64,000 nt of DNA from an uncultured Bacilli bacterium (lineage in GTDB: Bacteria; Bacillota_I; Bacilli_A; RF39; UBA660): contig CAKOPW010000006.1 in assembly GCA_934101115.1 (NCBI GenBank), forward strand, positions 18,632 through 82,631. Reading direction: 5' to 3'. Position 1 is the first letter of the stretch. Every line of letters starts with the position of its first letter. Under the pieces are notes generated by a model, which had not been told where the DNA came from, made no database searches, and was given only the letters and a program-made list of their open reading frames with translations. Below, piece by piece: positions 7,866 to 62,627 of the stretch. Both the position numbers and the translations under genes were made by a program.

Positions 7866-7871
7866 TTATTT

Positions 7872-7952: not shown

Positions 7953-7957
7953 ATATC

Positions 7958-8053
7958 TTATATTCCTTTTCTACAAAGAAGATATAATAATATAAAAATT
8001 ATAATGATTAAACTTGTTACTAGTAGTTCTATTTTAAATTGGTGTTTAAACAT
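7958..8053 (-). CDS. 31-aa hydrophobic peptide MFKHQFKIELLVTSLIIIIFILLYLLCRKGI (candidate type I toxin)
   Basis: AAGGAAGTGA SD ~7 nt upstream of ATG; single predicted TM helix with a basic C-terminus; the stop lies 6 nt from the end of the sRNA terminator T-run (7952). Confidence 0.35.
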   Translation of the reverse strand: MFKHQFKIELLVTSLIIIIFILLYLLCRKGI

Positions 8054-44627: not shown

Positions 44628-45259
44628 TAATACTCCACCTTATCAACTAAATATCCTATAAAGACAGTTTGCTTATCTTTAGTACCTTTTTTACAAGTAA
44701 TAAGTGTTATTGCACTTTTATATCTATTTCTTACAATTTCAATTTTACCATCTTTATCTGTATCATAGGAATTGTTTAATTTATAAATGTATTTTATTCC
44801 GTCATAATAGATATATATTAATGAATCTTCCTTCAATTTATATAAGTTTCTAAAAAAAGAAACACCACTTGTTCCATTATGTCCTGCTAGTATTAAATTA
44901 CTATTTTCAACATTAGGCATTTGTGAATGCTCTATTATTTGAATATTATACTTAACATTATTATATCTACTATTATAATCAACAATACCTCTTTTCAAGT
45001 TTATACTTGGTATTTCAAGAATAGCAATATAATTATAAGATGGTGAGGAAGATTTTTTATTTTCTTCCTCTTTTAATTGTTCTTGAAGACTAACTTCCTC
45101 AGATTGTTCTTCTTCTATAAAGAAGTCATCCACCATCTTAACTTCTTGTACTTCTTTTTTTGTATTTTTATAAATATCAAAAGTAAAAATAAAAACTGAA
45201 ACTATTATTAATATAAATCCTATAATTAATACTATCTTATTTTCTTTTTTTCTTTTCAT
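44627..45259 (-). CDS. Sortase (class B-like), dedicated to the upstream adhesin
   Basis: N-terminal TM, LILAGHNGTSG (His), AITLITCKKG (TLxTC Cys). Confidence 0.8.
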   Translation of the reverse strand: MKRKKENKIVLIIGFILIIVSVFIFTFDIYKNTKKEVQEVKMVDDFFIEEEQSEEVSLQEQLKEEENKKSSSPSYNYIAILEIPSINLKRGIVDYNSRYNNVKYNIQIIEHSQMPNVENSNLILAGHNGTSGVSFFRNLYKLKEDSLIYIYYDGIKYIYKLNNSYDTDKDGKIEIVRNRYKSAITLITCKKGTKDKQTVFIGYLVDKVEY

Positions 45260-48044
45260 ATAAGATTATCCCCAATCCTACTAATCCTATTGATAAAGAA
45301 ATAATGTATTTAGTATAATTTCTATTTAAATTAGTATTTGGCACTTCTACTTCTTCTAAATCATTAACTAAAGTAGAATTTATTATCTCACCATCTTTTT
45401 CTACTTTAAAATAATTTTTGTCATTATTTAAAACATAATGTTCAAGTGTAGAAATTTCTTTATAATAATAACTTCCGTATTCTAATTCCACTTCTATAAC
45501 ACCATTTTCATCAGTAGTATACTCACCAAGTAGATTATCATTTAAATTATAGATACCAATAACTACTCCAGCTAATGGATTATTATTAGAATCTACCTTA
45601 TTAATTATCAATTTAGATTTAATTTTAGTATTAGTCATTTCAGATTTTACTATTTCTCCATTTTCCTTTATTTCAAACTCAATCTTTTCAGTGTTTAAAA
45701 TATATCCTTCTGGAGCTTCTTTTTCTAAAATAAAATATTTATGACCTGCAGGTAAATTATCAATAATTACTTTACCATCTTTATCAGTTACATACTCACC
45801 AATAAGTTTTTCTTCATCATCATTTAAATAAATCTCAATTTTAGTATTTGGAATAGTATCTGAAGTTGTAAAATCTTTTTTAGTAAATTCTAATTTCCCT
45901 TTGGATAATTTATTTGTAAAAGTAAATACTTTAGATATTACTGCTGTATATTGATCCTTATATTTTAGTTCTACTTCATATTCCTTAGAATCAATAACAT
46001 GATTACCATTTGTTTCTAATTCTTTTAAGAAGTATTTACCCAATTTTAAGTTTTCAATTTTAGCATATCCATTAGAATCTGTTGTTACCTCTGCAATTAA
46101 TTGTTTATTCTCATCATAAAGTCCATATTTTACTTTTTCAAGCGGTATTTCTTCATAAGAATATTTATTATCATCTATTACAAATTTTTCACCCTTTTTA
46201 TTAATTTCAATCTTTCCTTTAACTGCTTGGTTTTCAAATTTTGTTTCAAATAATACACCATATTTATTGTCAGTTATCAAATTAGAATTTTCACCTATTT
46301 CAAATTCTTTTGATTCTTTATTCCATAAATAACCATCTATAACTTGATCTACCTCTTCTAACTTATATTTTCCAGATATTAAAGGATATGGTGTAATTAA
46401 TACTCCATTATCATCAGTTTTAAATTCACATAAAGTTTCTGCTTTTGGATATGTAACTGTTTGGCAAACATAATCATCACTCGCAAGTGATTTTATTTTA
46501 AATGTTATACCACTTCTTGGAATAACCTCTCCTGTATCTTTATCAACTTTAATCACTTTTAATTTAGCAGTTATTTCAGCATTTGAAATTAATTTGTATG
46601 TATTTGAATCCGTATCATCTCCTACAACAAACTCAAAATCATCTACTTTTTCATAATTAGGTGTACTGGTTATTTGTTTAAATGTGTAACTTCCATAAGG
46701 AAGTTTTATTTCTGCATATCCATTTTTATCAGTGGTAATCTTATTAATATAACAAACATTATTACCCATTTGTTTTTGATTACTCTTGCTTTTTAAAAGT
46801 CTAGGAGTACAATTATTTAAAAATATTTCAAAAGTTACATTTGGCTCTGGAGTTAAAATACCTGTTTTAGAATTAGCGAATACTTTAAATATTGTTAAAT
46901 CTGTTTCTTTTACTTTTTCATAAACATCTAAACTTTCAAGTAAAACATTTTCATTAAGTACAAATGAATATTTATTTTTGTCTAATGTATAACCTTTACT
47001 TGGAGTTATTTCTTTAATATAAAATTCTCCTAAACTAGGCAAATAATCACTAATTGCATATCCATTTTTATCAGTCTTTAACTCACTTATTTTTTCATTG
47101 CTAGTATTATAGATTCCATAGATAGCATTTTCTAAACTAGCATTGCCTTGTGGGTAACTCTCTTTCGTATTACTATCCTTTTTATTAATTTCAACTCTTC
47201 CTCCAATTACTTTTAAATTAAATAAAGCAGGAAGTGGATCATAATAACCTACCCTCATAACATTTTGAGAACCTTCTTTAAAGTAAACAATTGGTGGTGC
47301 GGAATGTTTAGTTGCTTTTTTTACTAAATTAACTTTTGCATCTCCAATACCAGTTGCAGTCAAAATTAAATTATTACCTTCAATTTTAGCACTAACATTT
47401 TCAGTTGATGCAATACTAAAATATTTTAAAACATTATTTGAATCCGTTAATGTTTTGCTTTGACCTAGTGGAATTGATAAATTGTCAGTGTTAAAATTTG
47501 GTCTTGTATAATGACTATTTACTAATGAATCCATTTCGGCTATTTCACTTGCAAACTTATTAGGATTATCTGTTCCATTTAATGTATCAGTAAAAACAAA
47601 TTTATTTTGTGGCTCAATTGTTCTCCATATCATTAATTGTGTAATAGCATACCATTTATTATTTGAATGATCATATCCATTATCATTATATTGATAACCA
47701 TAATAAGCAAGTAAAGCAATTCTATTCCATTGCTCTTCAGTTATATTTAATACACTAGCATAATCACTTCTAGCAATATTATAATAAGGCAAATTATTAT
47801 CAATATCTACGAATGGTTGCAAACAATACACAAAAGCATTGTCTTCACTTCTTCTCATAAATCTAGCTTGCATATATTTAATATATCCATCATTTCTATA
47901 TTTCCTAACAAATATATTTGAAATATGTTCTGATGGCCATATTGCTTGACCTGTATAAGTTTCAGCATTTACTTTTTCAATACCTAAAAAAGTTAAAAAT
48001 AAAAATACACCAATCATAGTGTATTTAAAGATTTTTCTTTTCAA
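45237..48044 (-). CDS. Cell-wall-anchored thioester-domain adhesin with multiple Cna-B/SpaA-type Ig-like repeats (TIE protein class)
   Basis: Signal peptide; FVYCLQPF (Cys) and AITQLMIWR (TQxxIW Gln) thioester signature; repeated TD.NGYA..L.LG.Y..KE motifs; C-terminal VPNTN plus hydrophobic stretch plus KKKRK; likely TTG start at 48044 after GAAGGAGGGA. Confidence 0.75.
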   Translation of the reverse strand: MKRKIFKYTMIGVFLFLTFLGIEKVNAETYTGQAIWPSEHISNIFVRKYRNDGYIKYMQARFMRRSEDNAFVYCLQPFVDIDNNLPYYNIARSDYASVLNITEEQWNRIALLAYYGYQYNDNGYDHSNNKWYAITQLMIWRTIEPQNKFVFTDTLNGTDNPNKFASEIAEMDSLVNSHYTRPNFNTDNLSIPLGQSKTLTDSNNVLKYFSIASTENVSAKIEGNNLILTATGIGDAKVNLVKKATKHSAPPIVYFKEGSQNVMRVGYYDPLPALFNLKVIGGRVEINKKDSNTKESYPQGNASLENAIYGIYNTSNEKISELKTDKNGYAISDYLPSLGEFYIKEITPSKGYTLDKNKYSFVLNENVLLESLDVYEKVKETDLTIFKVFANSKTGILTPEPNVTFEIFLNNCTPRLLKSKSNQKQMGNNVCYINKITTDKNGYAEIKLPYGSYTFKQITSTPNYEKVDDFEFVVGDDTDSNTYKLISNAEITAKLKVIKVDKDTGEVIPRSGITFKIKSLASDDYVCQTVTYPKAETLCEFKTDDNGVLITPYPLISGKYKLEEVDQVIDGYLWNKESKEFEIGENSNLITDNKYGVLFETKFENQAVKGKIEINKKGEKFVIDDNKYSYEEIPLEKVKYGLYDENKQLIAEVTTDSNGYAKIENLKLGKYFLKELETNGNHVIDSKEYEVELKYKDQYTAVISKVFTFTNKLSKGKLEFTKKDFTTSDTIPNTKIEIYLNDDEEKLIGEYVTDKDGKVIIDNLPAGHKYFILEKEAPEGYILNTEKIEFEIKENGEIVKSEMTNTKIKSKLIINKVDSNNNPLAGVVIGIYNLNDNLLGEYTTDENGVIEVELEYGSYYYKEISTLEHYVLNNDKNYFKVEKDGEIINSTLVNDLEEVEVPNTNLNRNYTKYIISLSIGLVGLGIILYEKKKRK

Positions 48045-48085
48045 ATTATATCCCTCCTTCATAAAAAAAGACATCACTTAAGATG

Positions 48086-48941: not shown

Positions 48942-49255
48942 AATCTTATCCTTTCTTTTTTATTACATTGTTGATATTTTACCTACTACCCTCAACAGGG
49001 GATTATTACTAAACGATTGATAGTTAATCAATTCCACGAGTCTATGCTCTTCTGTGGTTCTCACAGAACTGCTTCCATTATTTGAGATTGTGGCTAAGCA
49101 GGAGTATCATTATCCCTATTATTTGTCATGGCAGAAGATAGAACTACTATCCTTTTATAGTCAGATTTTTACCGACAAGCGAATCTACTAATGTGCTAAC
49201 CGTTTCCAGTTATAATAGGAATGTATTTAGTAAATGCAATTAAATTTTCAAAGAA

Positions 49256-49321: not shown

Positions 49322-49813
49322 CTAAAATTTAAATTTTTTTGAAATATTTTTAATTGCTGTATCAATTGAGTATTTTACAGCAACTTTGGAACACTTTTCT
49401 TCATTAGCAATTTCTTCATAAGTCTTATCGTAAAAGTAATATTTTATTATTCTTCTTTTTTGAATATCATTTAATTCATTGATGGCAGATTTTATTTCTT
49501 CACTTATAATTTTGTTAGATACTTCCTCTTCTACAGATATGGTTTCAGTAATACTTCTATGATAAAGTGTTTCTTCATATAATTCGTTAAATTCAATGTG
49601 TTTCCTAATCTTATGAATTTGAGATATATCCTCTAATTCAAAACTATCAAAAGCATCATATACTTCTTTTGAAATAATCATTTCCTGTTGATTATTTCTA
49701 CTATCTTTAAACTTTAATATATAACAATTATTTTCTTTTATTTCTAAAGTATAAGGATTATATTTATCCTTATTTCTTGTTTCGTGTTTATTCATTTTTT
49801 CTCTCCTTATCAA
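49322..49813 (-). CDS. Sigma-70 region-4-like HTH regulator (Tn916 Orf7-like position)
   Basis: 163 aa; C-terminal QKRRIIKYYFYDKTYEEIANEEKCSKVAVKYSI. Confidence 0.55.
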   Translation of the reverse strand: MIRREKMNKHETRNKDKYNPYTLEIKENNCYILKFKDSRNNQQEMIISKEVYDAFDSFELEDISQIHKIRKHIEFNELYEETLYHRSITETISVEEEVSNKIISEEIKSAINELNDIQKRRIIKYYFYDKTYEEIANEEKCSKVAVKYSIDTAIKNISKKFKF

Positions 49814-50281: not shown

Positions 50282-51394
50282 CTAAATATTTTTAATTGCA
50301 TTTTCTAGTAAATTAATAAGCCTTTTAATGTCATCTCTTTCTAGTGATACATTAAAATATTCTGTGGACCTATCAAAATGAAATTCTATTTCAACTAATT
50401 CATAGCAAGATCTATCTTTCCAAAATACAAACTGAACGGCTGAATCTAAGAAATCCATTTTTTCAAATGATTCTTTTTTATCTTTTTTAGAATGAAAACA
50501 TTTTTTAAATCTATCTAATAATTTATTAAATTCATTTTTTGTCATTATAAAATTATCTATTTTTGCAGAAAATGAAGGATTTTGAACACCAAATTCAATT
50601 GTGTATTTATCATCCTCTTTATTTAAAATATTAAATAATATTGAACTACCATTCTCTCCTACAAAATAATTATCCCATTGATTAAAAGTAAATCTTGTAT
50701 TCCAATTTAAATTATAATAGTCTGCTAGGCACCATTCCACCTGTAAAGCATAAAAATCATATTTATCTTCTTTTATATCACTCATAGATATAAAACAATT
50801 GAAGATATTATTTTTTCTTAAATATACTATTTTAGTAAATATTTTTTCTATCTCAAAAATGTCCTTATCATTATCAAAAACAAATTTAGATAACTCTTTA
50901 TTTAACATTTTGGTATATATATTATCTTCATATAACTTAGAAAATAACAATACATTATTATAAAAATTATAAAGATACATTCTAATAAAACCTGCTGTAT
51001 ATTTTGCAATATTATTATATTGATTTTTACCGCTGTGAACATTATCTTTGCATAATAATATGTTCACATATTTATTAGATAAACTTTCTTCAATAGTTAA
51101 TAATTGTTCCGTACTATTAAAATAAAAATTATCTTTAATATAAGTAATGTATCTATCTACATTTTCAAGGAATCTTTCTTCTAAAGTAATTGTATCTCTT
51201 CCAAATACTAATTTACTAGCATCAATATTACCCTTCTTAATTTTTTCTACTAATGAGTGCATCTCTTTTATACTTAGCAATTTACATAAATCACTACCAT
51301 TTGAATACACATCACTTACTGCGTACTTCTTCATTCTTTTTGTTTGTTCCGTATCTGGAACAATCCACTCTTTTTCCATGTAATTCTCCTTCAT
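50282..51394 (-). CDS. Hypothetical protein (370 aa), divergent from the XRE regulator
   Basis: Long ORF; no motif recognised. Confidence 0.5.
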   Translation of the reverse strand: MKENYMEKEWIVPDTEQTKRMKKYAVSDVYSNGSDLCKLLSIKEMHSLVEKIKKGNIDASKLVFGRDTITLEERFLENVDRYITYIKDNFYFNSTEQLLTIEESLSNKYVNILLCKDNVHSGKNQYNNIAKYTAGFIRMYLYNFYNNVLLFSKLYEDNIYTKMLNKELSKFVFDNDKDIFEIEKIFTKIVYLRKNNIFNCFISMSDIKEDKYDFYALQVEWCLADYYNLNWNTRFTFNQWDNYFVGENGSSILFNILNKEDDKYTIEFGVQNPSFSAKIDNFIMTKNEFNKLLDRFKKCFHSKKDKKESFEKMDFLDSAVQFVFWKDRSCYELVEIEFHFDRSTEYFNVSLERDDIKRLINLLENAIKNI

Positions 51395-51508: not shown

Positions 51509-51946
51509 GTGAAGGTAAAAAGACTTAGGGAAACTAGAGAAAATTTAGATTTAAAACAGATTGATTTAACTGATTTATTTGGTGTTACATATTCAACTAT
51601 TTCAGGATGGGAAACAGGAAAAGATACAATACCTTTAAAGCAATTAATTAAATATGCAAATAAATATAATTATAGTTTGGATTATCTATTAGGGCTAACA
51701 GATAAAAATATTGAATATAAAGACCTTAAAATAAATCTTAATTCTTTGGCAACTAATTTGAGAAAAAAGAGAAAACAATATGGTAAAACTCAACAACAGA
51801 TTGCCGATATTATTAATACAAGTCAATCAAGTTATGCTCATTATGAAAATGCTAGATATTTAATGCCATTAAACTTTTTATACAATCTTAGTAAGATATA
51901 TAATGATTTATCAATAGATGAAATGTTGGGAAGAAAAAAGAAGTAG
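51509..51946 (+). CDS. Tandem-HTH XRE-family regulator (two HTH_3-like domains), GTG start
   Basis: LRETRENLDLKQIDLTDLFGVTYSTISGWETGK and LRKKRKQYGKTQQQIADIINTSQSSYAHYENAR; AGGTGA SD. Confidence 0.75.
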   Translation: MKVKRLRETRENLDLKQIDLTDLFGVTYSTISGWETGKDTIPLKQLIKYANKYNYSLDYLLGLTDKNIEYKDLKINLNSLATNLRKKRKQYGKTQQQIADIINTSQSSYAHYENARYLMPLNFLYNLSKIYNDLSIDEMLGRKKK

Positions 51947-51967: not shown

Positions 51968-53263
51968 TTATTCGCTTATTAATTTTCCAATATCATTACA
52001 TAATGGTAGTAATTGTTCTATTTTATTTACAATTATTTGTTGATCTTCTATAGATGGATACTTTAACTCAATATTTTTAATTTTATTAATACTTACTCCG
52101 CCGATTATTCCGCTTAAATTACTATTAAAGTTTTTTAGAAAAATAGGAGATTGTAAATAATAATACAAAAATTTAGGAAGAATATTTGGATTTGTAGAGA
52201 ATCTACATAACTTATTACCATAACACACTGTTTCATTTAAAATACCAATCTTTTTTCCAGCACTTCCACCTTCAATACAAATCAAAATATCGTTTTCTCT
52301 TGCATATTTAAATCCTTTTTCATCGAAAGGAATTTTTATACCATTATCATAATTAAAAGTATGATTAAATTCTAAATCCTTTGTAGCAATATAGTTATAT
52401 CCATCTTTAATATTTGTATATTTAGATTTTTTTATGGATTCAGAAATACTATTACCAGTTACAATATCTTTACAACAATCAATAAGTTTATTACTATTCC
52501 ACACGGAAGTATTTTGATTTGTCAACTTACCAGTGTAAGCATCATTCAAGATACTGGTAATCATATCATTTGGAAAGCTATCTTTCAAAAATTTAAGTTC
52601 TTCTTCAATTGGTTTTATTTCGTTTAGTTTAGCAAATATTTCTTCTATTTTATCTACTATTCTCTGCTGTTCTTCTAATGGTGGCAGAGGGATTATATAT
52701 TCACCAATTTTATCTGTAGATGTATGAACTATAATATTTCCTTTTGCAGTTTTGGATTTTTGTTTTATTAAAAATTGACTAAACATGCAATATACAATAT
52801 ACATAGGATTTTGATTATGCTCTGTTAAAGAACACATATCACCTCCCATTACTAATCCTTTATTTCCAAGATAAGCAGTTGCTTTTGCAATATCGTATTC
52901 ATTTTCACCAGTCAAAGTAAAAAGAACATCTCCATAATTAACACTTTTATATTTTTTTGAATTAGTTTCTTCTATAAATGATATAGTTTCTTTGAAAGAG
53001 TAAGAATATGATGTATATATTTCTCCATATCTAATACATGGAAATCCTTCATTTACTGTTTCTGTTCTTTTAATGCCATTTCCTCTGACTAATTTTCCTA
53101 CATATTTCAATTTTGTCCAAATCCAGTTTTTAGGTATTTCAAACAAATTGTCAGCATTATCTATTTCTTTTACTCCCTTGACAGATTCGTTCTTATTCTG
53201 AATGCTTAATTTACCACATATTGCATAATTTAAAATACTTTTTTTGAAATCTTCAACAATCAT
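51968..53263 (-). CDS. hsdS: Type I R-M specificity subunit HsdS
   Basis: 431 aa; two TRDs separated by conserved LPPLEEQQRIVDKIEEIF and YPSIEDQQIIVNKIEQL helices. Confidence 0.85.
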   Translation of the reverse strand: MIVEDFKKSILNYAICGKLSIQNKNESVKGVKEIDNADNLFEIPKNWIWTKLKYVGKLVRGNGIKRTETVNEGFPCIRYGEIYTSYSYSFKETISFIEETNSKKYKSVNYGDVLFTLTGENEYDIAKATAYLGNKGLVMGGDMCSLTEHNQNPMYIVYCMFSQFLIKQKSKTAKGNIIVHTSTDKIGEYIIPLPPLEEQQRIVDKIEEIFAKLNEIKPIEEELKFLKDSFPNDMITSILNDAYTGKLTNQNTSVWNSNKLIDCCKDIVTGNSISESIKKSKYTNIKDGYNYIATKDLEFNHTFNYDNGIKIPFDEKGFKYARENDILICIEGGSAGKKIGILNETVCYGNKLCRFSTNPNILPKFLYYYLQSPIFLKNFNSNLSGIIGGVSINKIKNIELKYPSIEDQQIIVNKIEQLLPLCNDIGKLISE

Positions 53264-54747
53264 TTTAAATCACCTATTATTTTAATGATACCCTCAAGTT
53301 TTTCATCTAATTGTTTTTCTAGAGTTTCTCTTCTAGTTATAAAGTTATCTATTGTTTCCCTTGGTGATAGTATAATTTCTTCCTTTTTTGGATAACCACA
53401 TTGATCTAGATTATAATTTAGATTAGATAATTCTTCTATTGTAAATTTCTTTGATTTATAAGTTTCGGTTAATGATTCATCATCCTTTAAATCTTTAATC
53501 TCAGTTCTGTTATACCACCAATCAATAATAGATTGCAAATGTTTTAATTCCACAGGTTTCGTTTTACTAAATGCTTTATATCCTTCTGGTAAATCCATTC
53601 TATAAAACCATGTTTCTTGTGTTGGGCCTGTTTTATCAAAAAACAATAAGTTTGTTGCAATACTTGTATATGGTGCAAATATTGAACCTGGTAATCTTAT
53701 AATTGTATGCAAATTACATTCTTCCATTAACTTCTTTTTTATTGCGACTTTAGTATTATCATTTCCAAATAAAAATCCATCTGGTAATACTATACCAACC
53801 TTACCATTTTGTTTTAATCTATAAAGTATTTCTACCATGAACAAATCAGCCGTTTCAGAATCTCTTAAATCAGTTGGAAAATTTTGTTGTACAGATTTTT
53901 TTTCAGTACCACCATAAGGAGGATTCATTAAGATAATATCAAATTTATCCTCTTCTTCATAATCTCTTACATTCTTTTCAAGAGAATTGCCTCTTATAAT
54001 ATTAGGCTCATTAACATCATGTAAAAGCATATTGGTTGTACATAATAAATATGGTAAAGATTTCTTTTCAACTCCGTAAAATGATTTTTTTAATATCTCA
54101 TTAGATTCTGTATCATTTGCTTGTTCTTTCATATGATTAAGTGCTGAAACAAGGAATCCACCAGTACCACAAGCAAAGTCTGCTACTGTCTGTCCAATTT
54201 TAGGATCAACCATTTTAACAATAAAGTCAGTTACTGCTCTTGGAGTATAAAATTCTCCAGATTTACCAGCCGATTGTAGATCTTTTAATATTGTTTCGTA
54301 TATTTCATTAAACGCATGTCTTGTTTGAAAGTCTGTTAAATCAATTTCGTTTAAGACATTAACCACCTGTCTAATTAATACGCCATCCTTCATATAGTTA
54401 TTTAAATCTTCAAAAACTTCTCTAACTATTCTTCCCCTTATTGGAGTTGTTTCATTAATTTCAAGATTTTTTAAAGTATCAAATAATTGAATAATAAAGT
54501 TAGAAAGTTCATCACCTGTCATTGCCTTTCCATCTTTATTATCTATTGCCCAATTTCTCCATCTATATTCCTCTGGGATGATTGATTTATAATTATCTTC
54601 TAAAATTTCCCATTCACTTTCTTTAGCATCATACAATTTTAAGAACAGCATCCAAACAATTTGTTCTATTCTTTGGGCATCACCATTAACACCTGCATCT
54701 TGCCTCATAATATCTTGTAATCTTTTTATCATTGTTCCTATATTCAT
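53260..54747 (-). CDS. hsdM: Type I R-M N6-adenine methyltransferase HsdM
   Basis: DFACGTGGFL (motif I), LMNPPYGG (motif IV), N-terminal HsdM_N-like region. Confidence 0.9.
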   Translation of the reverse strand: MNIGTMIKRLQDIMRQDAGVNGDAQRIEQIVWMLFLKLYDAKESEWEILEDNYKSIIPEEYRWRNWAIDNKDGKAMTGDELSNFIIQLFDTLKNLEINETTPIRGRIVREVFEDLNNYMKDGVLIRQVVNVLNEIDLTDFQTRHAFNEIYETILKDLQSAGKSGEFYTPRAVTDFIVKMVDPKIGQTVADFACGTGGFLVSALNHMKEQANDTESNEILKKSFYGVEKKSLPYLLCTTNMLLHDVNEPNIIRGNSLEKNVRDYEEEDKFDIILMNPPYGGTEKKSVQQNFPTDLRDSETADLFMVEILYRLKQNGKVGIVLPDGFLFGNDNTKVAIKKKLMEECNLHTIIRLPGSIFAPYTSIATNLLFFDKTGPTQETWFYRMDLPEGYKAFSKTKPVELKHLQSIIDWWYNRTEIKDLKDDESLTETYKSKKFTIEELSNLNYNLDQCGYPKKEEIILSPRETIDNFITRRETLEKQLDEKLEGIIKIIGDLK

Positions 54748-54758
54748 TTTTTCACTCC

Positions 54759-57089
54759 CTAACTATACAATAAATTTTCTAATTTTGAAATCATACCTAA
54801 GTATTTATCTTTTCCACCAAATAAATTAATGATAGGAACAAGACCTCCAAATTTATTAAAATTTTTAATTTCCAGTAATTTAATATTTTCAAGTTCTATA
54901 ATATTTTTACTTTTATACACTTTTAAAAGTTCATCAATTACATTTTTTTGTTTATCGTTATATTCATTTAAAATAGAACTTTCTTCTACCTTTTCAATTC
55001 TATCTTCTTTTGTTAATGCTTTTTCATCATAAGCCATGTTTGAAAGTATATCAAATATATCAATATTATTATCATTTACTTTATTAAATACAGCATCAAC
55101 CATTACTCCTTCACTCATTAAATGTTCTAGAAACTCTTTTTTAGAATCAGCCCTAAACCATTCTTGCTCAAAACCATCATGATTTTCGTATAATCTTTTA
55201 AGATTTTTCTTAGAATATTCCATTATGGATTCTGTTATTAGTTTTCCATCTGCATCATAGTATTTTATTGTTTCATTTAATATTGAAACATCAACGCCCT
55301 TAATGTAAATTTTTTTAAATCCTTCTTGATCCACTGCTCCATTAATTGGTAGTTCAGGTTTAATGTTATCAATTCCATATTCTTTTGGAGATTTTACATC
55401 ATCTAAATCACCACCATCAATATTAATAATTGATTCTGCAGGTCCATTAAATGCTGGATCAGCAAACTTTTCAGAATTATTTCTAAAATCCATAATTGTA
55501 AAGAATTCTTTTCCTTTATTTAGAAGTAATCTTGTACCTCTACCAATTATTTGTTTGAATTCAGTCATACTTTGTATTTCTTCATCTAATACAATTAATT
55601 TTACAGTTTTAGTATCAACCCCAGTTGATAATAATTTTGATGTTGTTGCAATAACTGGATATGTTGTATTTGAATCAATAAAATCATCCAATTTAGTTTT
55701 CCCATAGTCATCGTTACTAGTAATTCTTACAACATAACTTGGATTCACTTTCATCATATCAGAATTTTCATTTGCTAAAGCATCTCTCATTCTAAGTGCA
55801 TGTTCAGTATCTACGCAAAATACAATTGTTCTCGCATATCTATCAGTTGCTTTTAAATATTCTGTAATTCTTTTTGCTACTACTTTTGTTCTCTCATCAA
55901 TAACAATTTTTCTATCAAAATCATGTACTGTATATTCTTTATCCTCCACCTCATATCCATCTTCATCAAGTTTACCTTTTTCTGGTCTATAACCCTCCAA
56001 ATCTTTGTCAAGCCCAACTTTAATAACTTTATATGGTGCAAGGAATCCATCTTCTATTCCATCTTTTAATGAATAAGTATAAATAGGTTCTCCAAAATAA
56101 GCAATATTTGAAATATCATTGGTTTCTTTAGGCGTTGCAGTCATACCAATTTGTGTAGCAGAACTAAAATAATTAAGTATTTCATGCCAGTTTGAATCAT
56201 CTCTTGCACTACTTCTATGACACTCATCAACAATTATTAAATCAAAGAAATCAGGTTTAAATTGTTTATATACTTCTTTTTCATTACTTCTAAGTTGATG
56301 ATATAGTGACATATATATTTCATAAGATGAATCCATTTTTCTGTTTTCAATTTTAGTCATTACTTTTTGAAAAGGTTTAAAATCGTTTTGCATTGTTTGA
56401 TCAATCAAAATATTTCTATCAGCCAAATACAAAATCTTCTTTTTTGCTCCAGAACTATATAATCTGTGGATTATTTGAAATGCTGTAAATGTTTTTCCAG
56501 TTCCAGTTGCCATTACAAGCAGTATTCTTTTTTGCCCTTTGGCGATAGCTTCAACCGTTTTATTAATAGCAATTCTCTGATAATACCTAGGAGTTTTAAA
56601 TGCACTCATATAATAATAAGGTTGTGTGATTATTTTTGTTTCCTCTTCTGTTAAGTTTTTTTCTGCTTTATATCTATTCCACAACTCTTCTGGTGTTGGA
56701 AATTCATCTAATTTGATTTCTCTCTCTTTTCCAGTAATTCTATCATGTTCATAAAATCCAGACCCATTTGATGAATACGCAAAAGGAATATCTAAATCTA
56801 CAGCATATCCAATTGCTTGTTGAATTCCATGAGATACTGTAACTTTATTATCTTTTGCTTCAACAATTGCAATTGGCATATTTGACCTGTAAGATAACAG
56901 ATAGTCAACTTTTTTGCCTTTGCCCCTACTGGCAACATTTTCTCTAACATTTATTTTACCATCTGTATAATAATACTCACATCTAATTTGAGATTGTATA
57001 TCCCATTCTGATTTTTGTAACGATGGAGTTATAAATCTTAATTTAATATCTTCTTCTGTCAAATCTTTAATACTTAATTCATTATTCAT
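54759..57089 (-). CDS. hsdR: Type I R-M restriction subunit HsdR
   Basis: 776 aa; N-terminal nuclease region (VDYLL..AIVEAK), helicase motifs MATGTGKTFTAF, IIVDECHRS, MTATP. Confidence 0.85.
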   Translation of the reverse strand: MNNELSIKDLTEEDIKLRFITPSLQKSEWDIQSQIRCEYYYTDGKINVRENVASRGKGKKVDYLLSYRSNMPIAIVEAKDNKVTVSHGIQQAIGYAVDLDIPFAYSSNGSGFYEHDRITGKEREIKLDEFPTPEELWNRYKAEKNLTEEETKIITQPYYYMSAFKTPRYYQRIAINKTVEAIAKGQKRILLVMATGTGKTFTAFQIIHRLYSSGAKKKILYLADRNILIDQTMQNDFKPFQKVMTKIENRKMDSSYEIYMSLYHQLRSNEKEVYKQFKPDFFDLIIVDECHRSSARDDSNWHEILNYFSSATQIGMTATPKETNDISNIAYFGEPIYTYSLKDGIEDGFLAPYKVIKVGLDKDLEGYRPEKGKLDEDGYEVEDKEYTVHDFDRKIVIDERTKVVAKRITEYLKATDRYARTIVFCVDTEHALRMRDALANENSDMMKVNPSYVVRITSNDDYGKTKLDDFIDSNTTYPVIATTSKLLSTGVDTKTVKLIVLDEEIQSMTEFKQIIGRGTRLLLNKGKEFFTIMDFRNNSEKFADPAFNGPAESIINIDGGDLDDVKSPKEYGIDNIKPELPINGAVDQEGFKKIYIKGVDVSILNETIKYYDADGKLITESIMEYSKKNLKRLYENHDGFEQEWFRADSKKEFLEHLMSEGVMVDAVFNKVNDNNIDIFDILSNMAYDEKALTKEDRIEKVEESSILNEYNDKQKNVIDELLKVYKSKNIIELENIKLLEIKNFNKFGGLVPIINLFGGKDKYLGMISKLENLLYS

Positions 57090-57141: not shown

Positions 57142-57175
57142 TATAATTATACCATAAAAAGTGTAAATTTACATT
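57142..57175 (-). promoter_or_regulatory. 34-nt promoter/operator module, copy 1 (upstream of hsdR): extended -10 TGGTATAAT plus 12-bp palindrome TGTAAATTTACA
   Basis: Identical to 61708-61741; TATAATTATACCATAAAAAGTGTAAATTTACATT on the plus strand. Confidence 0.6.
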
Positions 57176-57226: not shown

Positions 57227-58420
57227 TCAAATCTTTATTTTGCGTCTTTCACCCCATTTGTTTATGGAATCTACTAACTTATTTAACATTTCTTGATTAA
57301 TTTTTATATTTAAATAATTCATATATATAATCCTTAAACATAAAATCAATTTAAATTGAGCATAATTGTTTTCTAGTTGTTCAAAAACCTTTTTGCTTTC
57401 ATTCATATTAAAATGTGATAAATAATGTCTATGTTCTTTTGCTTTTAATAAAAATATAGAAGTATTATGAGAGTCATTTGCATTTTTTAAATCTTTTTTA
57501 TTTAATATTTGTTTTATAGTATTATCTTTCAAAAAATAATATTCTAATATTTGCCATAATTCTTTTTTATTATCATTATTTAAGGTTATATATGTACCCT
57601 CAATCAATTGAACGAGTAAACTATTATTCATTTCCATATAACCAATACCATTTTGACTTGTCATAAATACATCGTACAAAATATATGTATCTTTTCTAAA
57701 TTTTATAAACCTTTTTATTAAGTCAGCAGTAAGGACTTCTGAACTAATTACAGACAATGCACTATCATTTGAACCAGATTTTAAATTTTGAAAATACTTA
57801 TCAGCTATTTTTTGATACAAAATAATCTCATCATCACCAACATAAAATATATATTTTTCTATTTTAGGAATACTTCCAAATATTAGATAAACAATCTCAA
57901 GAACTCTATAAAGAACATCATCTAATTTTTCTCTCTTTGTTTTTGTTTTAGATTCAATACGAAACAACAAGATAGTTTTGTCATTACTATTATCTATTTT
58001 TTTATCTATGTAAATATTTTTCTGTGAGGTGTATTTAATCTTAAATTTATTTATGTAGCAACCATAATGATAACTTTTAGGATATGAAGTTTCAAATATT
58101 ATTTTATCTGTTAAAATATTGTCTTTTTCACCAATATAGTTTTCAAAAATATAATTAATGCTGACATTTTTAAAAGATACACAGGAATTTGTTTTATATC
58201 CGAGCAAACATTCTAAGCAAGAATAATTTTTACCATTTTCATCAATCAAATATAAATTCATTGCAGGTAACGGAAATAGCAATGGACGATTAAAAATAGC
58301 AAAATAGTCTTCAAATGATAAGTCAAATTGAAAAGACAAGTTTTCTAAATCTAGAAATCCATTAATACTAAAATAGTCTTTCTTATTTACACTAATCTTA
58401 TTTATTTTTACTAATTCCAT
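57227..58420 (-). CDS. Hypothetical protein with a C-terminal HEPN-like R-x4-H motif (ApeA/Abi-like?)
   Basis: 397 aa; KAKEHRHYLSHFN contains R-H-Y-L-S-H (R[NHQD]xxxH) in a predicted helical C-terminal third; 24 nt after the GmrSD-like gene. Confidence 0.4.
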   Translation of the reverse strand: MELVKINKISVNKKDYFSINGFLDLENLSFQFDLSFEDYFAIFNRPLLFPLPAMNLYLIDENGKNYSCLECLLGYKTNSCVSFKNVSINYIFENYIGEKDNILTDKIIFETSYPKSYHYGCYINKFKIKYTSQKNIYIDKKIDNSNDKTILLFRIESKTKTKREKLDDVLYRVLEIVYLIFGSIPKIEKYIFYVGDDEIILYQKIADKYFQNLKSGSNDSALSVISSEVLTADLIKRFIKFRKDTYILYDVFMTSQNGIGYMEMNNSLLVQLIEGTYITLNNDNKKELWQILEYYFLKDNTIKQILNKKDLKNANDSHNTSIFLLKAKEHRHYLSHFNMNESKKVFEQLENNYAQFKLILCLRIIYMNYLNIKINQEMLNKLVDSINKWGERRKIKI

Positions 58421-58444
58421 ACCTACCGTTTACTCCCTCACATT

Positions 58445-60925
58445 TTATTTTAAATTTTTTTCATAACTTTGTTTTAATATATTTTTAACATATTCAATAT
58501 CAGAATCTTGATTAACAATTATATATCTATCGTGAGTCCACTGATAACTTTCAGCAAGTTCTCCTACCATTTCCTTTGGATCATTGTAATCTCCAGTCAT
58601 AAGAACATATTTTAAACTATTCTTCTGAAACCATAATTCAATAAAATTTTTTCCATAATAATATGATAAATAAACTGATGTAGTATTTTTCTTTATATCA
58701 CTATTCAATGACATTACATAATTATCTAATTCATTATAAATATTCATAATTTCAGTATTTGTGTTTTTTGATATTTTGTTAAATTGATTTTCATCAAATA
58801 TTACTTCTCTTAATGATGAACTTTCAATTTCTTTATTTTCAGGAATAGTAACATCAATTTCATTATCCTCATCTTTTATCATAAAATCTAATCCAAGCAT
58901 TTTGATTCTTTCTGCTTTATTAGGAATAATAAAATCATATCTTTTTTCCATAAAAGAAATCATTGTCAAGCCACGATTTAGAATCTCATCTGGTGTCCAT
59001 TCTAAACATTTAGCAACTTGCATTTCAGAATGAGAACCATTTTCATATCCTCTAGTTCTATCCAATCCATGTTTTTTGTCATCAAATGAATAATTTTGTA
59101 ATTTAACATTTATACTTAACGATAATGGTAATAAATTGCCTAAAGAACCATTTAAATATTTTCTTTGAGTATCTGTATAATTACCAAATCTCTCTACCCA
59201 ATATTCATTGGTATCTGTTTGAGGATAAATATGTTCAATTGAAACTTTATCTTTTTCATCTTTTTTAAATAAATTTTCTGGATATATTTTTTGATTAGCT
59301 TGATTATTCATTAGATATAATTCATATTCATATAAGAAATAAGTTTTTGCTGGCCATGAATAATATCCCTTATAGTTTTTAAATAATCTATTAATATTAT
59401 TTAAAATAGCATTCATATTAGCAACTTTATTATCACTTAAATAATCTATTTTATCTAATTCTTCATTTACTTCATCTAAAGTAACTTCATTAATATAAAA
59501 TTTGTGTGCTAAATTCCAAAAGAAGCTGTTTTTATAAGTGGATTGATAATTAACTAATCTAAAGTGTAAAAATATAAATCTTTCTATCTTTTTTAAAGTA
59601 TTTACTTTATCAGATTCTGTAATCTCTTTTTTTGACAATAAAACTGTTATTAAAGGTTTGAAATATACAAATTGTAATCTATTTAACTTTTGAAGCATTG
59701 CTCTTACTTCACCACTTGATTCATACTCATCTGGATTTTGTACAATATACCAATATGGAATTAATGACTTCATACTATTAATATATTTGCTAATACTTCC
59801 TAAAGTTAATTTTTCTTTTTTATTTTCTGTTACAATTTCTTCTTTCGTTTCTATTTCGGATACATCTAAATTATCTATGTTTATCTCATCGTTATTTTCT
59901 TCTTGTGTTTTAATAATATATTTATCTGAAATGTTATTTTGATTAAAATAATCATTCAATAAAAACGATGCGTATGTAACTTTATTAGATCTTGTATAAC
60001 CAAAATATATAATCCAATGGTCTTGTAAAAAATCTTCATCATTTAATGCTTTTAATTTATTCTTTCCTAAATAGCCATATACATCTTTCCAAGTATTATT
60101 AATATTTTTTCTAATAGCTTTTTTATTATCTTCTTCATCTGAAAATATAGTTGATAAATATATTAATCTATTTTTTAATAACTCTAAATTAGATAATCTT
60201 TTTCCCCTATTATTCATTGTTTCAAATGCAACAAAAACATTAAAGTCATTATCTATATAATACATATTAAATTTTAGTTTTTGAGTTATCTTTCTAAATA
60301 TATCTTCAATGGAATGAATTCCGTTTTTATCATATTCTTCTTGAAGTCTATCCGAAAAGAATTTCTTGGCATTTTCTAAATTCAATGTATAAAATGTTTC
60401 ATTTAAAAGTCCAGAATTAGGTTCACCTAATATTTTATGTTTAAAGAATTCATAACTTGGATTGTCAACCTCATATCCGAACTTAAATGTTTTAATTATA
60501 TCTGCAGAATCAGGTTTTGAAATCACAAGAAAATCTTCTTCTATTTTATTAAGTGGAATACTATTAATAAAAATTTGATTCATTTCCTTATCAGGATTAA
60601 TTCTTTTATAAAATAAAACAATTTCATTTATTAATATAATAAAAGTCGTAAGCCTTTGTTGTCCATCAACAACATGATAGGCATTATAATTCCAATTATC
60701 TAAAAGCCATCTTTCATCATTCCACTTTTCATCACTTGTATATTCTCTATCTAATTTCTTCAAAGAAATCATACCTGTATAATGATCTCTGTTTGGAAGC
60801 AAATTTAAAATATCACTCCAAAATTCTTCTAATTGTAATTCTCCCCAAGAATACCCTCTTTGATAATCTGGTATTCTAAAAATTGATCTATTAAATAAAT
60901 CAGTTAATGATAATAAGTCATTCAT
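58445..60925 (-). CDS. DUF262/DUF1524 (GmrSD-family) nuclease-like protein with an extra C-terminal domain
   Basis: IPDYQRGYSW and VVDGQQRLTT (DUF262/ParB-like); SIEHIYPQ and LGNLLPLSLSINVKLQN (DUF1524 His-Me finger); the C-terminal ~130 aa are related to the 287-aa neighbour. Confidence 0.8.
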   Translation of the reverse strand: MNDLLSLTDLFNRSIFRIPDYQRGYSWGELQLEEFWSDILNLLPNRDHYTGMISLKKLDREYTSDEKWNDERWLLDNWNYNAYHVVDGQQRLTTFIILINEIVLFYKRINPDKEMNQIFINSIPLNKIEEDFLVISKPDSADIIKTFKFGYEVDNPSYEFFKHKILGEPNSGLLNETFYTLNLENAKKFFSDRLQEEYDKNGIHSIEDIFRKITQKLKFNMYYIDNDFNVFVAFETMNNRGKRLSNLELLKNRLIYLSTIFSDEEDNKKAIRKNINNTWKDVYGYLGKNKLKALNDEDFLQDHWIIYFGYTRSNKVTYASFLLNDYFNQNNISDKYIIKTQEENNDEINIDNLDVSEIETKEEIVTENKKEKLTLGSISKYINSMKSLIPYWYIVQNPDEYESSGEVRAMLQKLNRLQFVYFKPLITVLLSKKEITESDKVNTLKKIERFIFLHFRLVNYQSTYKNSFFWNLAHKFYINEVTLDEVNEELDKIDYLSDNKVANMNAILNNINRLFKNYKGYYSWPAKTYFLYEYELYLMNNQANQKIYPENLFKKDEKDKVSIEHIYPQTDTNEYWVERFGNYTDTQRKYLNGSLGNLLPLSLSINVKLQNYSFDDKKHGLDRTRGYENGSHSEMQVAKCLEWTPDEILNRGLTMISFMEKRYDFIIPNKAERIKMLGLDFMIKDEDNEIDVTIPENKEIESSSLREVIFDENQFNKISKNTNTEIMNIYNELDNYVMSLNSDIKKNTTSVYLSYYYGKNFIELWFQKNSLKYVLMTGDYNDPKEMVGELAESYQWTHDRYIIVNQDSDIEYVKNILKQSYEKNLK

Positions 60926-60942
60926 ATATTTTTCACCTCATC

Positions 60943-61683
60943 TTACATATTATCAATTAAAACATCAAGTTGTTTTCTATCTAAATTAAAATTATATATA
61001 GTATATTGTAAACATAATAATTTTTGAGTTAAGCATAATTCCGACAAATCTAAGCCTTTAACAAAGTTATTATATTTAGAAACAATGTCATTCTCCAACA
61101 AAATATTATCTTCTAAGTATTTTTTTATTTCATCAATGCTTTTATTGTTTAAATCATTTTTTATGTTTAAATTTTTAACTTGCAAATAATATTTGAGATA
61201 AATATCTTTTTGAATTGGTAACATATTATTTAAATATATTTCCACATCATTCATTTTACAAAATCCCATTAAAAGATTAATCAAAGGTTTAACTACATCT
61301 TCATGTTTATAGCCATGAACACCAGTACCAAGACTTGGAATTAAAACTTTTTTATATCCGTTTTCCTTTATGCTTAAAAGTAGGTTATTATAGCAATCCA
61401 TAAGTGAGTTAATAGGATCTGTTTCCTCATAATACTTAGGTGCTAAAACATGTATTATATCCATAGGTAAATTAAATCCAGGTGTAATTCTAACCTCACC
61501 ATTAACCATATATTCTTTATAAGTATTTTGACAATATTCTATTAATTCATTTCCTGAAGCTCTACAAATCACTCCACAAATACCACTGCCGTATTGCATA
61601 TATTTATTTTGTGCATTTACAATAGCGTCCATATTATTAGAATTTAATATAAAATCACCACATGTTAGATATAATTTTCCCAT
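60943..61683 (-). CDS. Macro-domain protein with an ~90-aa C-terminal extension
   Basis: GDFILNSNNMDAIVNAQNKYMQYGSGICGVI, RITPGFNLPMDIIHVLAP, LIPSLGTGVHGY: canonical MacroD-like motifs. Confidence 0.75.
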   Translation of the reverse strand: MGKLYLTCGDFILNSNNMDAIVNAQNKYMQYGSGICGVICRASGNELIEYCQNTYKEYMVNGEVRITPGFNLPMDIIHVLAPKYYEETDPINSLMDCYNNLLLSIKENGYKKVLIPSLGTGVHGYKHEDVVKPLINLLMGFCKMNDVEIYLNNMLPIQKDIYLKYYLQVKNLNIKNDLNNKSIDEIKKYLEDNILLENDIVSKYNNFVKGLDLSELCLTQKLLCLQYTIYNFNLDRKQLDVLIDNM

Positions 61684-61707
61684 AACTCACCTCAGGATCT
61701 TTCCAAA

Positions 61708-61741
61708 TATAATTATACCATAAAAAGTGTAAATTTACATT
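61708..61741 (-). promoter_or_regulatory. 34-nt promoter/operator module, copy 2 (upstream of the Macro operon)
   Basis: Identical to 57142-57175; -10 lies ~29 nt upstream of the Macro ATG, with a TGAGGTGAG SD between. Confidence 0.6.
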
Positions 61742-61763
61742 AGAAGCCAAAGAAAAAGCCATA

Positions 61764-62627
61764 CTACTTTTTATAGTATAGCTCATTTAATTTATTTTTA
61801 ACATCAATTGGATTTATTTTAGTTAAATCAAAACTCTTTTTGATTAAAGGCATAATAGTTTCTATGTCAGATTCTTCTTTAATTTTAAAACTTCTACATA
61901 AAGGTTCATAAGTACTACGACCTACAACAGATAAAATATTATTCTCATCTTCAACTGCTAAAATTCTTATATATAGGCAATTTGACCTCTTTTCAATTAT
62001 CAAGAAGTTTCTTGATGCAGTAAACACAATACCTTTAATCATCTTTTTCTTCTTTATACTTCTATCAATAGATTTAACATTATCCGTTAAAATTTTTGTT
62101 AAATTATTAAGATGATTTATCATAAATGGATTTGTTATCTGCTCATACTCTTTATCAATAAGATACTTGGCATAATTTAGGGAATTCTCATCCCCAACCC
62201 TCATTTTGTATTTTAAAGAACACTTTTCATATCCCTTTCTAATACTTAACTTATTTTCCTTATCAAATATCTTGACATCTTTTAGAAAACATAGAATCAT
62301 TTCTGTTTCATTTAATGTTACTTCCAAAATTCTACATCTATACTTAAAAGAAATTCCTTTAACTAAATAATTCCTAATTATCTTTCTATCTTTTTTTAGA
62401 ACATAATCTTCTAAATCATCATATAACTCTATTACCTTGGCATCTTTGTTGGTAGTTAATTTTTTATAATTACTAGTGTTAATATCATAAGAACGATTGT
62501 TTATTTTTCTACTATTCTTTACATGATTTGAAGTATAGCTCAAACATCCTTTTGGCTGTTCCAAATCAAGTTCTGGGTGGTATATATTACCATCGTGGGC
62601 AAAATCATTGGTAGTATAGACTTCCAT
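61764..62627 (-). CDS. Hypothetical protein with two copies of the module found at the C-terminus of the GmrSD-like protein (DUF5655-like as I recall)
   Basis: LYDDLEDYV..ISFKY..ILEV vs IYNELDNYV..YLSYYY..FIELW in the 826-aa protein; a second, weaker copy at aa ~175-270. Confidence 0.45.
   Translation of the reverse strand: MEVYTTNDFAHDGNIYHPELDLEQPKGCLSYTSNHVKNSRKINNRSYDINTSNYKKLTTNKDAKVIELYDDLEDYVLKKDRKIIRNYLVKGISFKYRCRILEVTLNETEMILCFLKDVKIFDKENKLSIRKGYEKCSLKYKMRVGDENSLNYAKYLIDKEYEQITNPFMINHLNNLTKILTDNVKSIDRSIKKKKMIKGIVFTASRNFLIIEKRSNCLYIRILAVEDENNILSVVGRSTYEPLCRSFKIKEESDIETIMPLIKKSFDLTKINPIDVKNKLNELYYKK

Follow-up and report, generated by a model that had tools for sequence, protein, structure and literature searches.

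A putative operon of macrodomain, GmrSD-type and ApeA-like HEPN genes within the variable accessory region of a conjugative element from uncultured gut Bacilli

Introduction

Do three closely packed genes with defence-like domains encode one immune machine, or are they separate modules that share a promoter? A 64,000-nt stretch of DNA from an uncultured Bacilli bacterium (contig CAKOPW010000006.1) raises this question. The whole stretch is called the window below, and all locus coordinates are positions in it. Its G+C content is 25%, and the minus strand holds nearly all genes, among them a macrodomain gene (Macro), a gene for a GmrSD-type enzyme and a gene for a 397-residue protein, which follow one another in this order. 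A first-pass annotation, made from the sequence without database searches, had proposed that this trio is an undescribed three-gene defence system in which the Macro protein regulates the nucleases. Comparison with related loci did not support that proposal: co-conservation fails, and each of the three genes can be separated from the others at 34-73% identity.

Results

Three genes in one predicted transcription unit

The trio and the signals around it are as follows.

60943-61683, minus strand: Macro gene, 246 aa (open reading frame list and Pfam)
58445-60925, minus strand: GmrSD-type gene, 826 aa (open reading frame list and Pfam)
57227-58420, minus strand: ApeA-like HEPN gene, 397 aa (open reading frame list and profile evidence)
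61708-61741, minus strand: promoter/operator copy 1, AATGTAAATTTACACTTTTTATGGTATAATTATA, predicted to drive the Macro-GmrSD-ApeA-like unit
57142-57175, minus strand: promoter/operator copy 2, identical to copy 1 in 34/34 nt, preceding hsdR and predicted to drive hsdRMS
61756-61784, minus strand: terminator-like hairpin (12-pair stem, then a T-run), separating the upstream DUF5655 gene from the Macro promoter

The layout reported by the first-pass annotation, three co-directional genes with gaps of 17 and 24 nt, each with its own Shine-Dalgarno (SD) site and all behind a single promoter module, was found exactly at these positions. The gap between Macro and the GmrSD-type gene is exactly 17 nt (gatGAGGTGAaaaatat) and holds the SD site GAGGTGA, and the gap between the GmrSD-type gene and the 397-aa gene is exactly 24 nt (aatgtGAGGGAGtaaacggtaggt) and holds the SD site GAGGGAG. 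The Macro gene has an SD site of its own, again GAGGTGA. On the 3' side of the 397-aa gene, a T-run is followed by the next promoter copy. Because an identical 34-nt copy precedes hsdR, the trio can be read as one unit bracketed by two promoter/operator copies. The arrangement supports a single sigma-70-type transcription unit of 4.5 kb comprising the Macro, GmrSD-type and 397-aa genes, as predicted from these signals.

The three genes occur apart from one another

Related loci that were fetched for comparison carry L-numbers here. Wherever the 397-aa protein has a homologue at least 69% identical, a GmrSD-type gene lies directly before it, with Macro further upstream in every contig that is long enough (L010, L015, L018, L096-L101). 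The trio is confined to loci at this level of identity. Homologues with 34-57% identity were found in nine contexts, and no Macro or GmrSD gene was present in the fetched flanks, which extended to at most 8-10 kb and less at contig ends. Homologues stand alone between serS and purA in L011, L012 and L014, and are solitary also in L102/L103. In L003-L006, L108, L110, L112 and L117 the homologue begins 3 nt behind an HEPN_AbiU2 gene with an integrase gene adjacent. Elsewhere it follows a DUF6076 gene (L104/L105), a gene for a helix-turn-helix (HTH) protein with a SocA/Panacea antitoxin domain (L106/L107) or a T5orf172 gene in a type I-like locus (L001), or lies beside a serine recombinase gene (L007).

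The GmrSD-type gene is likewise found by itself. Full-length orthologues (826 residues, 68-73% identity) are present in three other contexts (L118-L124), with neither Macro nor a 397-aa homologue within 6 kb or up to the contig end. In L017 and L022, the GmrSD-type gene follows Macro and the 397-aa gene is absent.

Macro leads a co-directional block in 16 species-level loci, and the block usually ends at a convergent gene for a double-HTH protein of the XRE family. Full-length Macro homologues with 57-67% identity head other cargo. Macro is followed by another GmrSD subfamily (706 aa, 25% identical) and hsdRMS in L023/L026/L027, by type III mod/res genes in L019 and L020, where these are preceded by a gene for a 197-aa protein or a PUA-like protein, and by genes for a 197-aa protein, ADP_ribosyl_GH and YaaC together with hsdRMS in L031. 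In L029, a gene for a UvrA-like ABC protein and a second Macro gene come next, and in L021 only an 87-aa open reading frame (ORF) stands between Macro and the boundary HTH gene. Two unrelated genes, of 100 aa and 231 aa (the latter with CBS domains), are inserted between near-identical Macro and GmrSD-type genes in L015 and L017.

Each member of the trio is thus found in the absence of both others, which makes the three autonomous at the level of the genome. The trio represents one young element lineage and not a conserved system.

A GmrSD-type enzyme of a known family

The 826-aa protein matches Pfam GmrSD_N with E 5e-32 (112.1 bits, cut-off 33.2) and GmrSD_C with E 8.4e-15 (55.3 bits, cut-off 23). 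The motifs VVDGQQRLTT, EHIYPQ and GNLLPL..N are all found in the translation, as are those quoted by the first-pass annotation (IPDYQRGYSW, DGQQRLTT, EHIYPQ and GNLLPL), and the Pfam matches bear out its assignment to GmrSD-like DUF262/DUF1524 proteins with an extra C-terminal domain. The extra domain is DUF5655, which is a borderline match at E 3.3e-5 and 24.3 bits with a cut-off of 24. The nearest PADLOC candidate is the single-gene HEC-06 (E 1.9e-41), for which the best stretch places residues 77-314 on model positions 67-291 of 569; DUF5655 lies outside the model. The family is very large, with more than 6,600 matches at E<1e-20. Judged by its domains, the 826-aa protein is a single-chain type IV enzyme of the GmrSD family (DUF262 plus DUF1524/HNH) and belongs to a known family.

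A CBS-domain protein of 231-237 aa accompanies this GmrSD subfamily in several loci (L015 5674-6685, L017 10731-11742, L120 8682-9380, L121 7575-8288). It is encoded together with the 100-aa ORF between Macro and the GmrSD-type gene in L015 and L017, and downstream of the GmrSD-type gene, before a type ISP enzyme, in L120-L122. The CBS-domain protein is a possible accessory partner for the GmrSD-type enzymes of this clade.

A short and divergent ApeA-like HEPN protein

Direct scans of the 397-aa protein against Pfam, PADLOC, NCBIfam and PHROGs returned nothing meaningful. Its family is very rare: 29 homologue clusters were found among 5.8 billion proteins, and a profile search of 1.84 billion gave 97 representatives at E<1e-3. 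Homologues sought in viral contigs and plasmids were absent. The HRHYLSH motif to which the first-pass annotation had pointed is present in the translation. All 22 homologues compared share H330, R331, L334, S335 and H336 (KEHR[HN]YLSH), and R363 is likewise invariant. The KEHR[HN]YLSH stretch corresponds to the canonical R-[NH]-x3-H motif of HEPN proteins and lies in a helical C-terminal domain in AlphaFold 2 (AF2) models. In the AF2 model of the 397-aa protein, which is a confident one (predicted local distance difference test score, pLDDT, 89.7), the N-terminal half (~1-205) is rich in beta structure and the C-terminal half is helical.

The connection to ApeA comes through intermediate sequences. 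Thirty distant relatives of 375-486 aa, drawn from the family profile, were tested. Pfam HEPN_Apea (PF18739) matches 27 of the 30 and ApeA_NTD1 six, and the two Cas13-ApeA models of PADLOC match 12 and eight. The arginine and histidine of the motif and the downstream arginine are the only residues invariant across all 30. When the alignment of the close family was compared with that of the distant relatives by hhalign, a probability of 100% and E 1e-43 were obtained over 383 columns; since the alignment spans this length, both halves of the 397-aa family align with relatives that match HEPN_Apea. Among 22 close homologues, moreover, 10 have HEPN_Apea as their best Pfam match below threshold (best E 0.0011). 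These profile comparisons support the 397-aa protein as a short, divergent, ApeA-like HEPN effector.

Three results temper this assignment. The HEPN_Apea and ApeA models do not match the 397-aa protein even at E<=5. Foldseek searches with the full model against PDB and BFVD, and with the C-terminal domain against PDB, gave nothing significant; the best HEPN match, 4nqf, reached a template modelling (TM) score of 0.40-0.46 with E 6.5, and 4nqf and 7ae6 appeared only at E>6, so that the fold comparison speaks neither for nor against HEPN. The beta-rich N-terminal half in the AF2 model also differs from the N and Mid domains of Ec2ApeA, which are reported to be mainly alpha-helical. A PDB sequence-profile search with the family alignment found no match even at E<=10. 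Because the fold searches gave nothing significant, the predicted HEPN fold rests on sequence-profile evidence. Of the earlier HEPN-like claim, the R-x4-H motif and the homology to HEPN_Apea through intermediates thus stand, whereas a direct family match and Foldseek support did not materialize.

Distant homologues of the 397-aa protein are encoded by the second gene of two-gene cassettes in which the first gene varies. The first genes encode HTH plus SocA/Panacea proteins (L106 6896-7855, L107 3807-4766), HEPN_AbiU2 (L003 9363-9998), DUF6076 (L104 6998-7984) and T5orf172 (L001 9237-9878). The pairing of such relatives with a Panacea antitoxin-domain protein fits, and suggests, a toxic RNase effector.

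An orphan macrodomain with a lineage-restricted tail

Pfam Macro matches the 246-aa protein with E 1.3e-24 (86.9 bits, cut-off 22), and the fold spans residues ~1-150. The remaining ~100 residues (~150-246) form a helical tail that is conserved within the Macro family and matches nothing outside it, in agreement with the earlier description of a macrodomain with an extra C-terminal tail; the motifs cited in that description, DAIVNAQN, GSGICGVI and SLGTGVHGY, are present in the translation. The nearest solved relative is the Oceanobacillus MacroD 5L9K (E 2e-23), whose GGVDG aligns with GSGICG. Cys36, invariant in 17 homologues, occupies the position of the catalytic Asp of MacroD, and the His that follows in MacroD is replaced by Cys40 in the window protein and by Tyr in most homologues. 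Alphavirus nsP3 macrodomains presumably have a Cys at the position equivalent to Cys36.

All NCBIfam equivalog scores for Macro fall below their cut-offs, the best being 70.7 against 200. DarG scores 19.5 bits in NCBIfam against a cut-off of 250 (E 4.7e-4), and E 1.6e-4 in PADLOC. A PADLOC scan of four flanking ORFs matched no DarT-like transferase. A DarG antitoxin was therefore considered and rejected: Macro scores far too low against the DarG models, and none of these four ORFs matches DarT.

The family of Macro proteins with this tail comprises ~200 homologues, found only in metagenome-assembled genomes (MAGs) of gut Bacilli, where they head variable restriction-type operons. A plasmid search gave only matches to the Macro domain, covering at most 58% of the query and none extending past residue 151. 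Shorter Macro paralogues are present in the same taxa (L034-L081). By its sequence, Macro is an orphan MacroD-type macrodomain with a lineage-restricted tail, and it is the only truly unexplained part of the locus.

Further observations were made around Macro in related loci. L029 (1349-5317) encodes a Macro with the tail, an 818-aa UvrA-like double-ABC protein and a second full-length Macro with the tail. Proteins of 583-599 aa with an ADP-ribosylglycohydrolase domain adjoin Macro in L010 (4865-6631) and L031 (11462-13261), and ~290 C-terminal residues of these large ADP_ribosyl_GH proteins have no family assignment. The presence of ADP_ribosyl_GH beside Macro suggests a recurring theme of ADP-ribose erasure.

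A repeated 34-nt promoter/operator

A promoter scan of the module upstream of Macro gave TTTACA, a spacer of 16 nt and TATATT; the better reading is an extended -10 element, TGGTATAAT. A palindrome, TGTAAATTTACA, overlaps the -35 element. The 34-nt module has two exact matches in the window against 0 expected in shuffled sequence.

We searched for the module across the related loci by fuzzy regular expression. It is kept 5' of Macro in L010, L015, L016, L017 and L098. L017 has it at 9943 and 14281, heading Macro and a type IIG/ISP-like unit, and L100/L101 have it at 2835, 4676 and 9236, heading Macro, hsdR and a further unit immediately 5' of Macro. To judge from L010, the last of these units is probably an ADP_ribosyl_GH gene: in L098-L101, a promoter copy lies just 5' of Macro, at the position that the ADP_ribosyl_GH gene has in L010.

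Because the trio operon and hsdRMS carry the identical palindrome-bearing promoter, the two operons are probably co-regulated. The XRE protein at the end of the block is perhaps a candidate regulator acting on the TGTAAATTTACA operator. The same promoter on each defence unit of the element lineage suggests a common regulator and an easy exchange of cassettes.

A variable slot on a conjugative element

The genes that surround the trio in the window are listed here in order of position.

30623-32125, minus strand: Y-family polymerase (conjugation backbone)
32926-34242, minus strand: MobL relaxase (conjugation backbone)
35568-36605, minus strand: SWIM zinc-finger protein (conjugation backbone)
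36824-37756, minus strand: M23 peptidase (conjugation backbone)
38039-40519, minus strand: VirB4/TraG-like ATPase (conjugation backbone)
45237-48077, minus strand: SpaA/thioester adhesin, 946 aa (conjugation backbone)
51509-51946, plus strand: convergent double-HTH gene of the XRE family, which closes the variable block
51968-53263, minus strand: hsdS, specificity subunit (named from position)
53260-54747, minus strand: hsdM, type I methyltransferase (named from position and inspection of the translation)
54759-57089, minus strand: hsdR of the EcoAI/FtnUII family, type I (NCBIfam NF046051, 1077 bits, cut-off 550)
61764-62627, minus strand: DUF5655-domain protein, 287 aa, in its own transcription unit, matching the PADLOC candidate PDC-S18

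Judged by the backbone genes and the interchangeable cargo, the block is an accessory/defence hotspot of an integrative conjugative element (ICE). The cargo between the Macro and XRE genes differs in at least 14 loci, and the closest relatives of the locus are all on contigs from MAGs of uncultured gut Bacilli. The XRE gene (cluster C2) forms the distal boundary in L017, L021, L022, L023, L026, L027 and L031, and its L023 homologue matches HTH_3 twice (E 8.6e-24). A prophage context was rejected in view of the conjugation backbone in the window. We also discarded the idea that Macro anchors the hotspot at a fixed chromosomal site, as its upstream neighbours differ too (SWIM, DUF5655, ADP_ribosyl_GH and others).

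The hsdR match upholds the earlier statement that a type I restriction-modification (R-M) system adjoins the trio. The hsdM gene is 79-96% identical to the gene lying between hsdR and hsdS in L023, L026, L027, L031, L097 and L101. Across the same loci, hsdS is only 24-30% identical whereas hsdR and hsdM are 77-97% identical, and hsdS therefore appears to have been swapped within the element lineage.

Several neighbouring features stand apart from the trio. The upstream 287-aa protein has the same DUF5655 domain as the C terminus of the GmrSD-type enzyme, and it recurs 5' of Macro in L015, L019 and L030. In L023, genes for an IMS polymerase, a YolD-like protein and a SWIM protein stand in a row 5' of Macro, and the SWIM gene ends 12 nt before Macro. 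A 370-aa ORF without a family match (50282-51394, minus strand) lies just past the XRE gene and has a homologue at the same place in L017 (cluster C22). The Rfam pemK RNA motif (RF02913) was found at 49034-49113 on the minus strand with 44.2 bits (gathering score 34.8), between a sigma-70-like gene (49322-49813) and a 198-aa ORF upstream of the SpaA adhesin gene. At 5001-8000, the G+C content is 0.35 against ~0.25 elsewhere; ORFs there span 5000-6181 and 6202-7644 (minus strand).

Discussion

One machine or separate modules?

We consider it reasonably probable that the trio is a mosaic, in which three functionally autonomous modules are strung together in a variable slot of an ICE and do not make up one machine. 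The GmrSD-type enzyme would then cut modified invader DNA on its own by means of its DUF262 NTPase/ParB-like and DUF1524 HNH-like domains, by analogy with GmrSD, BrxU and HEC-06. In the ApeA-like protein, the beta-rich N-terminal domain would keep the RNase domain with its C-terminal R-[HN]-x3-H motif inactive until infection is signalled, and the freed RNase, also acting alone, would cleave tRNA or other RNA and lead to an abortive or growth-arrest response. Macro would erase (or bind) ADP-ribose marks that the transferases of an invader or competitor have set, and would do so independently of both nucleases; the first-pass annotation had likewise suggested, as a second possibility, that the Macro protein could counter phage ADP-ribosyltransferases. 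The shared palindromic promoter would permit common repression, possibly by the XRE protein, as well as cassette exchange.

Apart from the doubts about the HEPN assignment given above, the mosaic has to face observations that pull the other way. In ~8 of 14 informative species-level loci, a GmrSD-type gene from one or the other subfamily comes directly after Macro, often overlapping or closely coupled with it; the order and tight spacing of the trio are kept in all close relatives; and the contexts sampled are few and clumped in the phylogeny, with most contigs short. Because Macro adjoins two GmrSD subfamilies with coupled junctions in so many loci, a partnership of Macro with the nuclease keeps some probability. 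Such a cooperative unit, with or without the ApeA-like protein, would have Macro bind or de-ADP-ribosylate the nuclease via its conserved tail, either like an antitoxin that keeps the nuclease inactive until infection or as a guard that keeps it active by erasing inhibitory ADP-ribose added by phage transferases of the T4 Alt/Mod type, an 'anti-anti-defence' role. We regard it as unlikely. It agrees with the position of Macro directly 5' of the GmrSD-type gene in the window, L010, L018, L022 and L096-L101, and 5' of the second subfamily in L023/L024/L026/L027, where the junctions overlap or measure 8-17 nt. It also agrees with the restriction of the tailed Macro family to this lineage and locus type, and with a second class of eraser, ADP_ribosyl_GH, beside Macro in L010 and L031 and, by the promoter copy at its place, in L098-L101. 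However, GmrSD orthologues 68-73% identical lack Macro in three of three sampled contexts, Macro heads operons without a GmrSD-type gene in L019, L020, L021, L029 and L031, and the 100-aa and 231-aa CBS genes split the near-identical Macro and GmrSD-type genes in L015 and L017. The literature searched contains no paper that names a macro domain as well as DUF262/GmrSD, and neither a Macro nor a GmrSD operon appears in a domain-centric discovery paper (PMC13069673); within this scope the trio is unnamed, as the first-pass annotation had it.

Two other explanations concern Macro itself. It could be an anti-defence gene of the element that erases ADP-ribose set by the recipient's defences on incoming single-stranded DNA (of the kind added by DarT-like enzymes) or on element proteins, much as orphan DarG-like enzymes of phages counter DarTG, and that merely shares the promoter, which we hold to be quite unlikely. 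The location on a conjugative element, the orphan state of Macro without a transferase among the flanking ORFs scanned, the weak DarG similarity, the second eraser class in the same blocks, and the orphan antitoxin-like ADP-ribose erasers documented in phages (PMC11825919, PMC11481870, PMC13309987) would all suit such a role. Yet Macro is of the MacroD type (O-acetyl-ADP-ribose deacetylases/MacroD, E 9e-20 and 2e-23) rather than the DarG/TARG1 type, its DarG score is less than a tenth of the cut-off, and no tailed homologue emerged from plasmids or viral contigs. Alternatively, Macro could be a housekeeping-type O-acetyl-ADP-ribose deacetylase or ADP-ribose binder that takes no part in conflict and is placed as the fixed first gene beside an insertion hotspot. 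Its best family matches are indeed YmdB/MacroD-type O-acetyl-ADP-ribose deacetylases, and L021 looks like an 'empty' site at which Macro persists without cargo. This explanation is very improbable in our view: the best equivalog score stays at 70.7 instead of 200, an invariant Cys takes the place of the catalytic Asp, a ~100-aa tail is added, the same taxa have shorter Macro paralogues as well, and the upstream neighbours vary, so that Macro, too, is mobile cargo and not a fixed anchor.

There is a slim chance that the tailed Macro and the promoter-sharing ADP_ribosyl_GH are general guards, which would erase inhibitory ADP-ribose set by phage or plasmid transferases from defence nucleases or their nucleic-acid targets. 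We give as little credence to the corresponding set of guarded effectors, namely GmrSD-type enzymes, type III and type I R-M systems and ApeA-like RNases, for which the erasers would form a modular and so far undescribed anti-anti-defence layer.

If the mosaic is correct, the locus offers no new immune mechanism. It does flag a rare, short ApeA-like HEPN branch with a beta domain that current Pfam and PADLOC models miss, and the varied partners of this branch, including the Panacea antitoxin, bear on how ApeA-type RNases are restrained. It also documents a cassette-style hotspot with one palindromic promoter/operator on conjugative elements of uncultured gut Bacilli, and a lineage-restricted Cys-variant Macro that repeatedly leads restriction-type operons and accompanies ADP-ribosylglycohydrolases. 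Should Macro shield defence nucleases or the element from ADP-ribosylation, this would add a new layer to the conflict between phages, mobile elements and hosts.

Comparison with known systems

Gao and colleagues reportedly described ApeA in 2020 as a single-protein anti-phage HEPN RNase. The 397-aa family resembles ApeA in its helical C-terminal domain with the invariant R-[HN]-x3-H motif and downstream Arg, in the end-to-end alignment of its profile with relatives that match HEPN_Apea, ApeA_NTD1 or Cas13-ApeA, and in its settings, which are defence or mobile-element loci and, in some genomes, solitary genes. Beyond the difference in the N-terminal half, the protein is ~190 aa shorter than Ec2ApeA (397 aa against at least residue 583), itself stays under the Pfam and PADLOC thresholds, and has many relatives that are the second member of a pair (with Panacea antitoxin, HEPN_AbiU2, DUF6076 or T5orf172). 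ApeA is reported to be a single-protein defence that cleaves the tRNA anticodon loop upon activation by a ligand, or phage genomic RNA (bioRxiv 10.64898/2026.01.26.701840, 10.64898/2026.03.20.713152). Its architecture comprises N and Mid domains and a split HEPN domain, in an oligomeric ring that has a ligand pocket.

Like GmrSD, BrxU, SspE and HEC-06, the GmrSD-type enzyme combines in a single chain a DUF262 domain with DGQQR and a DUF1524 domain whose HNH-like motif is H...N. Its profile matches to GmrSD and HEC-06 are strong, and its orthologues stand alone; it is set apart by a long linker and a DUF5655 domain of ~110 aa at the C terminus, and it covers the HEC-06 model only in part. Unlike BrxU and SspE, it is encoded outside BREX and Ssp/Dnd loci.

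Macro has in common with MacroD proteins (YmdB, human MacroD1/2 and 5L9K) the fold over residues ~1-150 and the N-x6-G-x-G and G-[VI]-x-G-Y loops, and the alphavirus nsP3 macrodomain 3gqe is among its PDB matches (E 1.1e-11). It departs from MacroD proteins in Cys36 instead of the catalytic Asp, in Tyr/Cys instead of the next His, in the ~100-aa conserved tail without detectable relatives, and in its restriction to MAGs of gut Bacilli. With DarTG it shares the presence of a macrodomain in a conflict locus and weak similarity to DarG, and it is an orphan like the phage-encoded versions (PMC11825919); it belongs to the MacroD and not the TARG1/DarG subtype, its DarG scores are far too low, and the flanking ORFs that were scanned include no DarT-like transferase.

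Variable defence hotspots are familiar from other elements, one of them being hotspot 5 of the SXT ICE. The block described here follows the same plan, with a fixed frame (the Macro-proximal end and the distal XRE gene) around exchangeable cargo that includes type I, IIG, III and IV restriction, HEPN proteins and a SieB-like gene. The P2/P4 hotspots (PMC9122126) and the variable defence locus of Streptococcus suis (PMC5398294) are further examples. In contrast to these, the same 34-nt palindrome-bearing promoter heads each cassette here, and this element family and its host are undescribed in this respect. The hotspot is thus organised along familiar lines, with the repeated promoter as its unusual trait.

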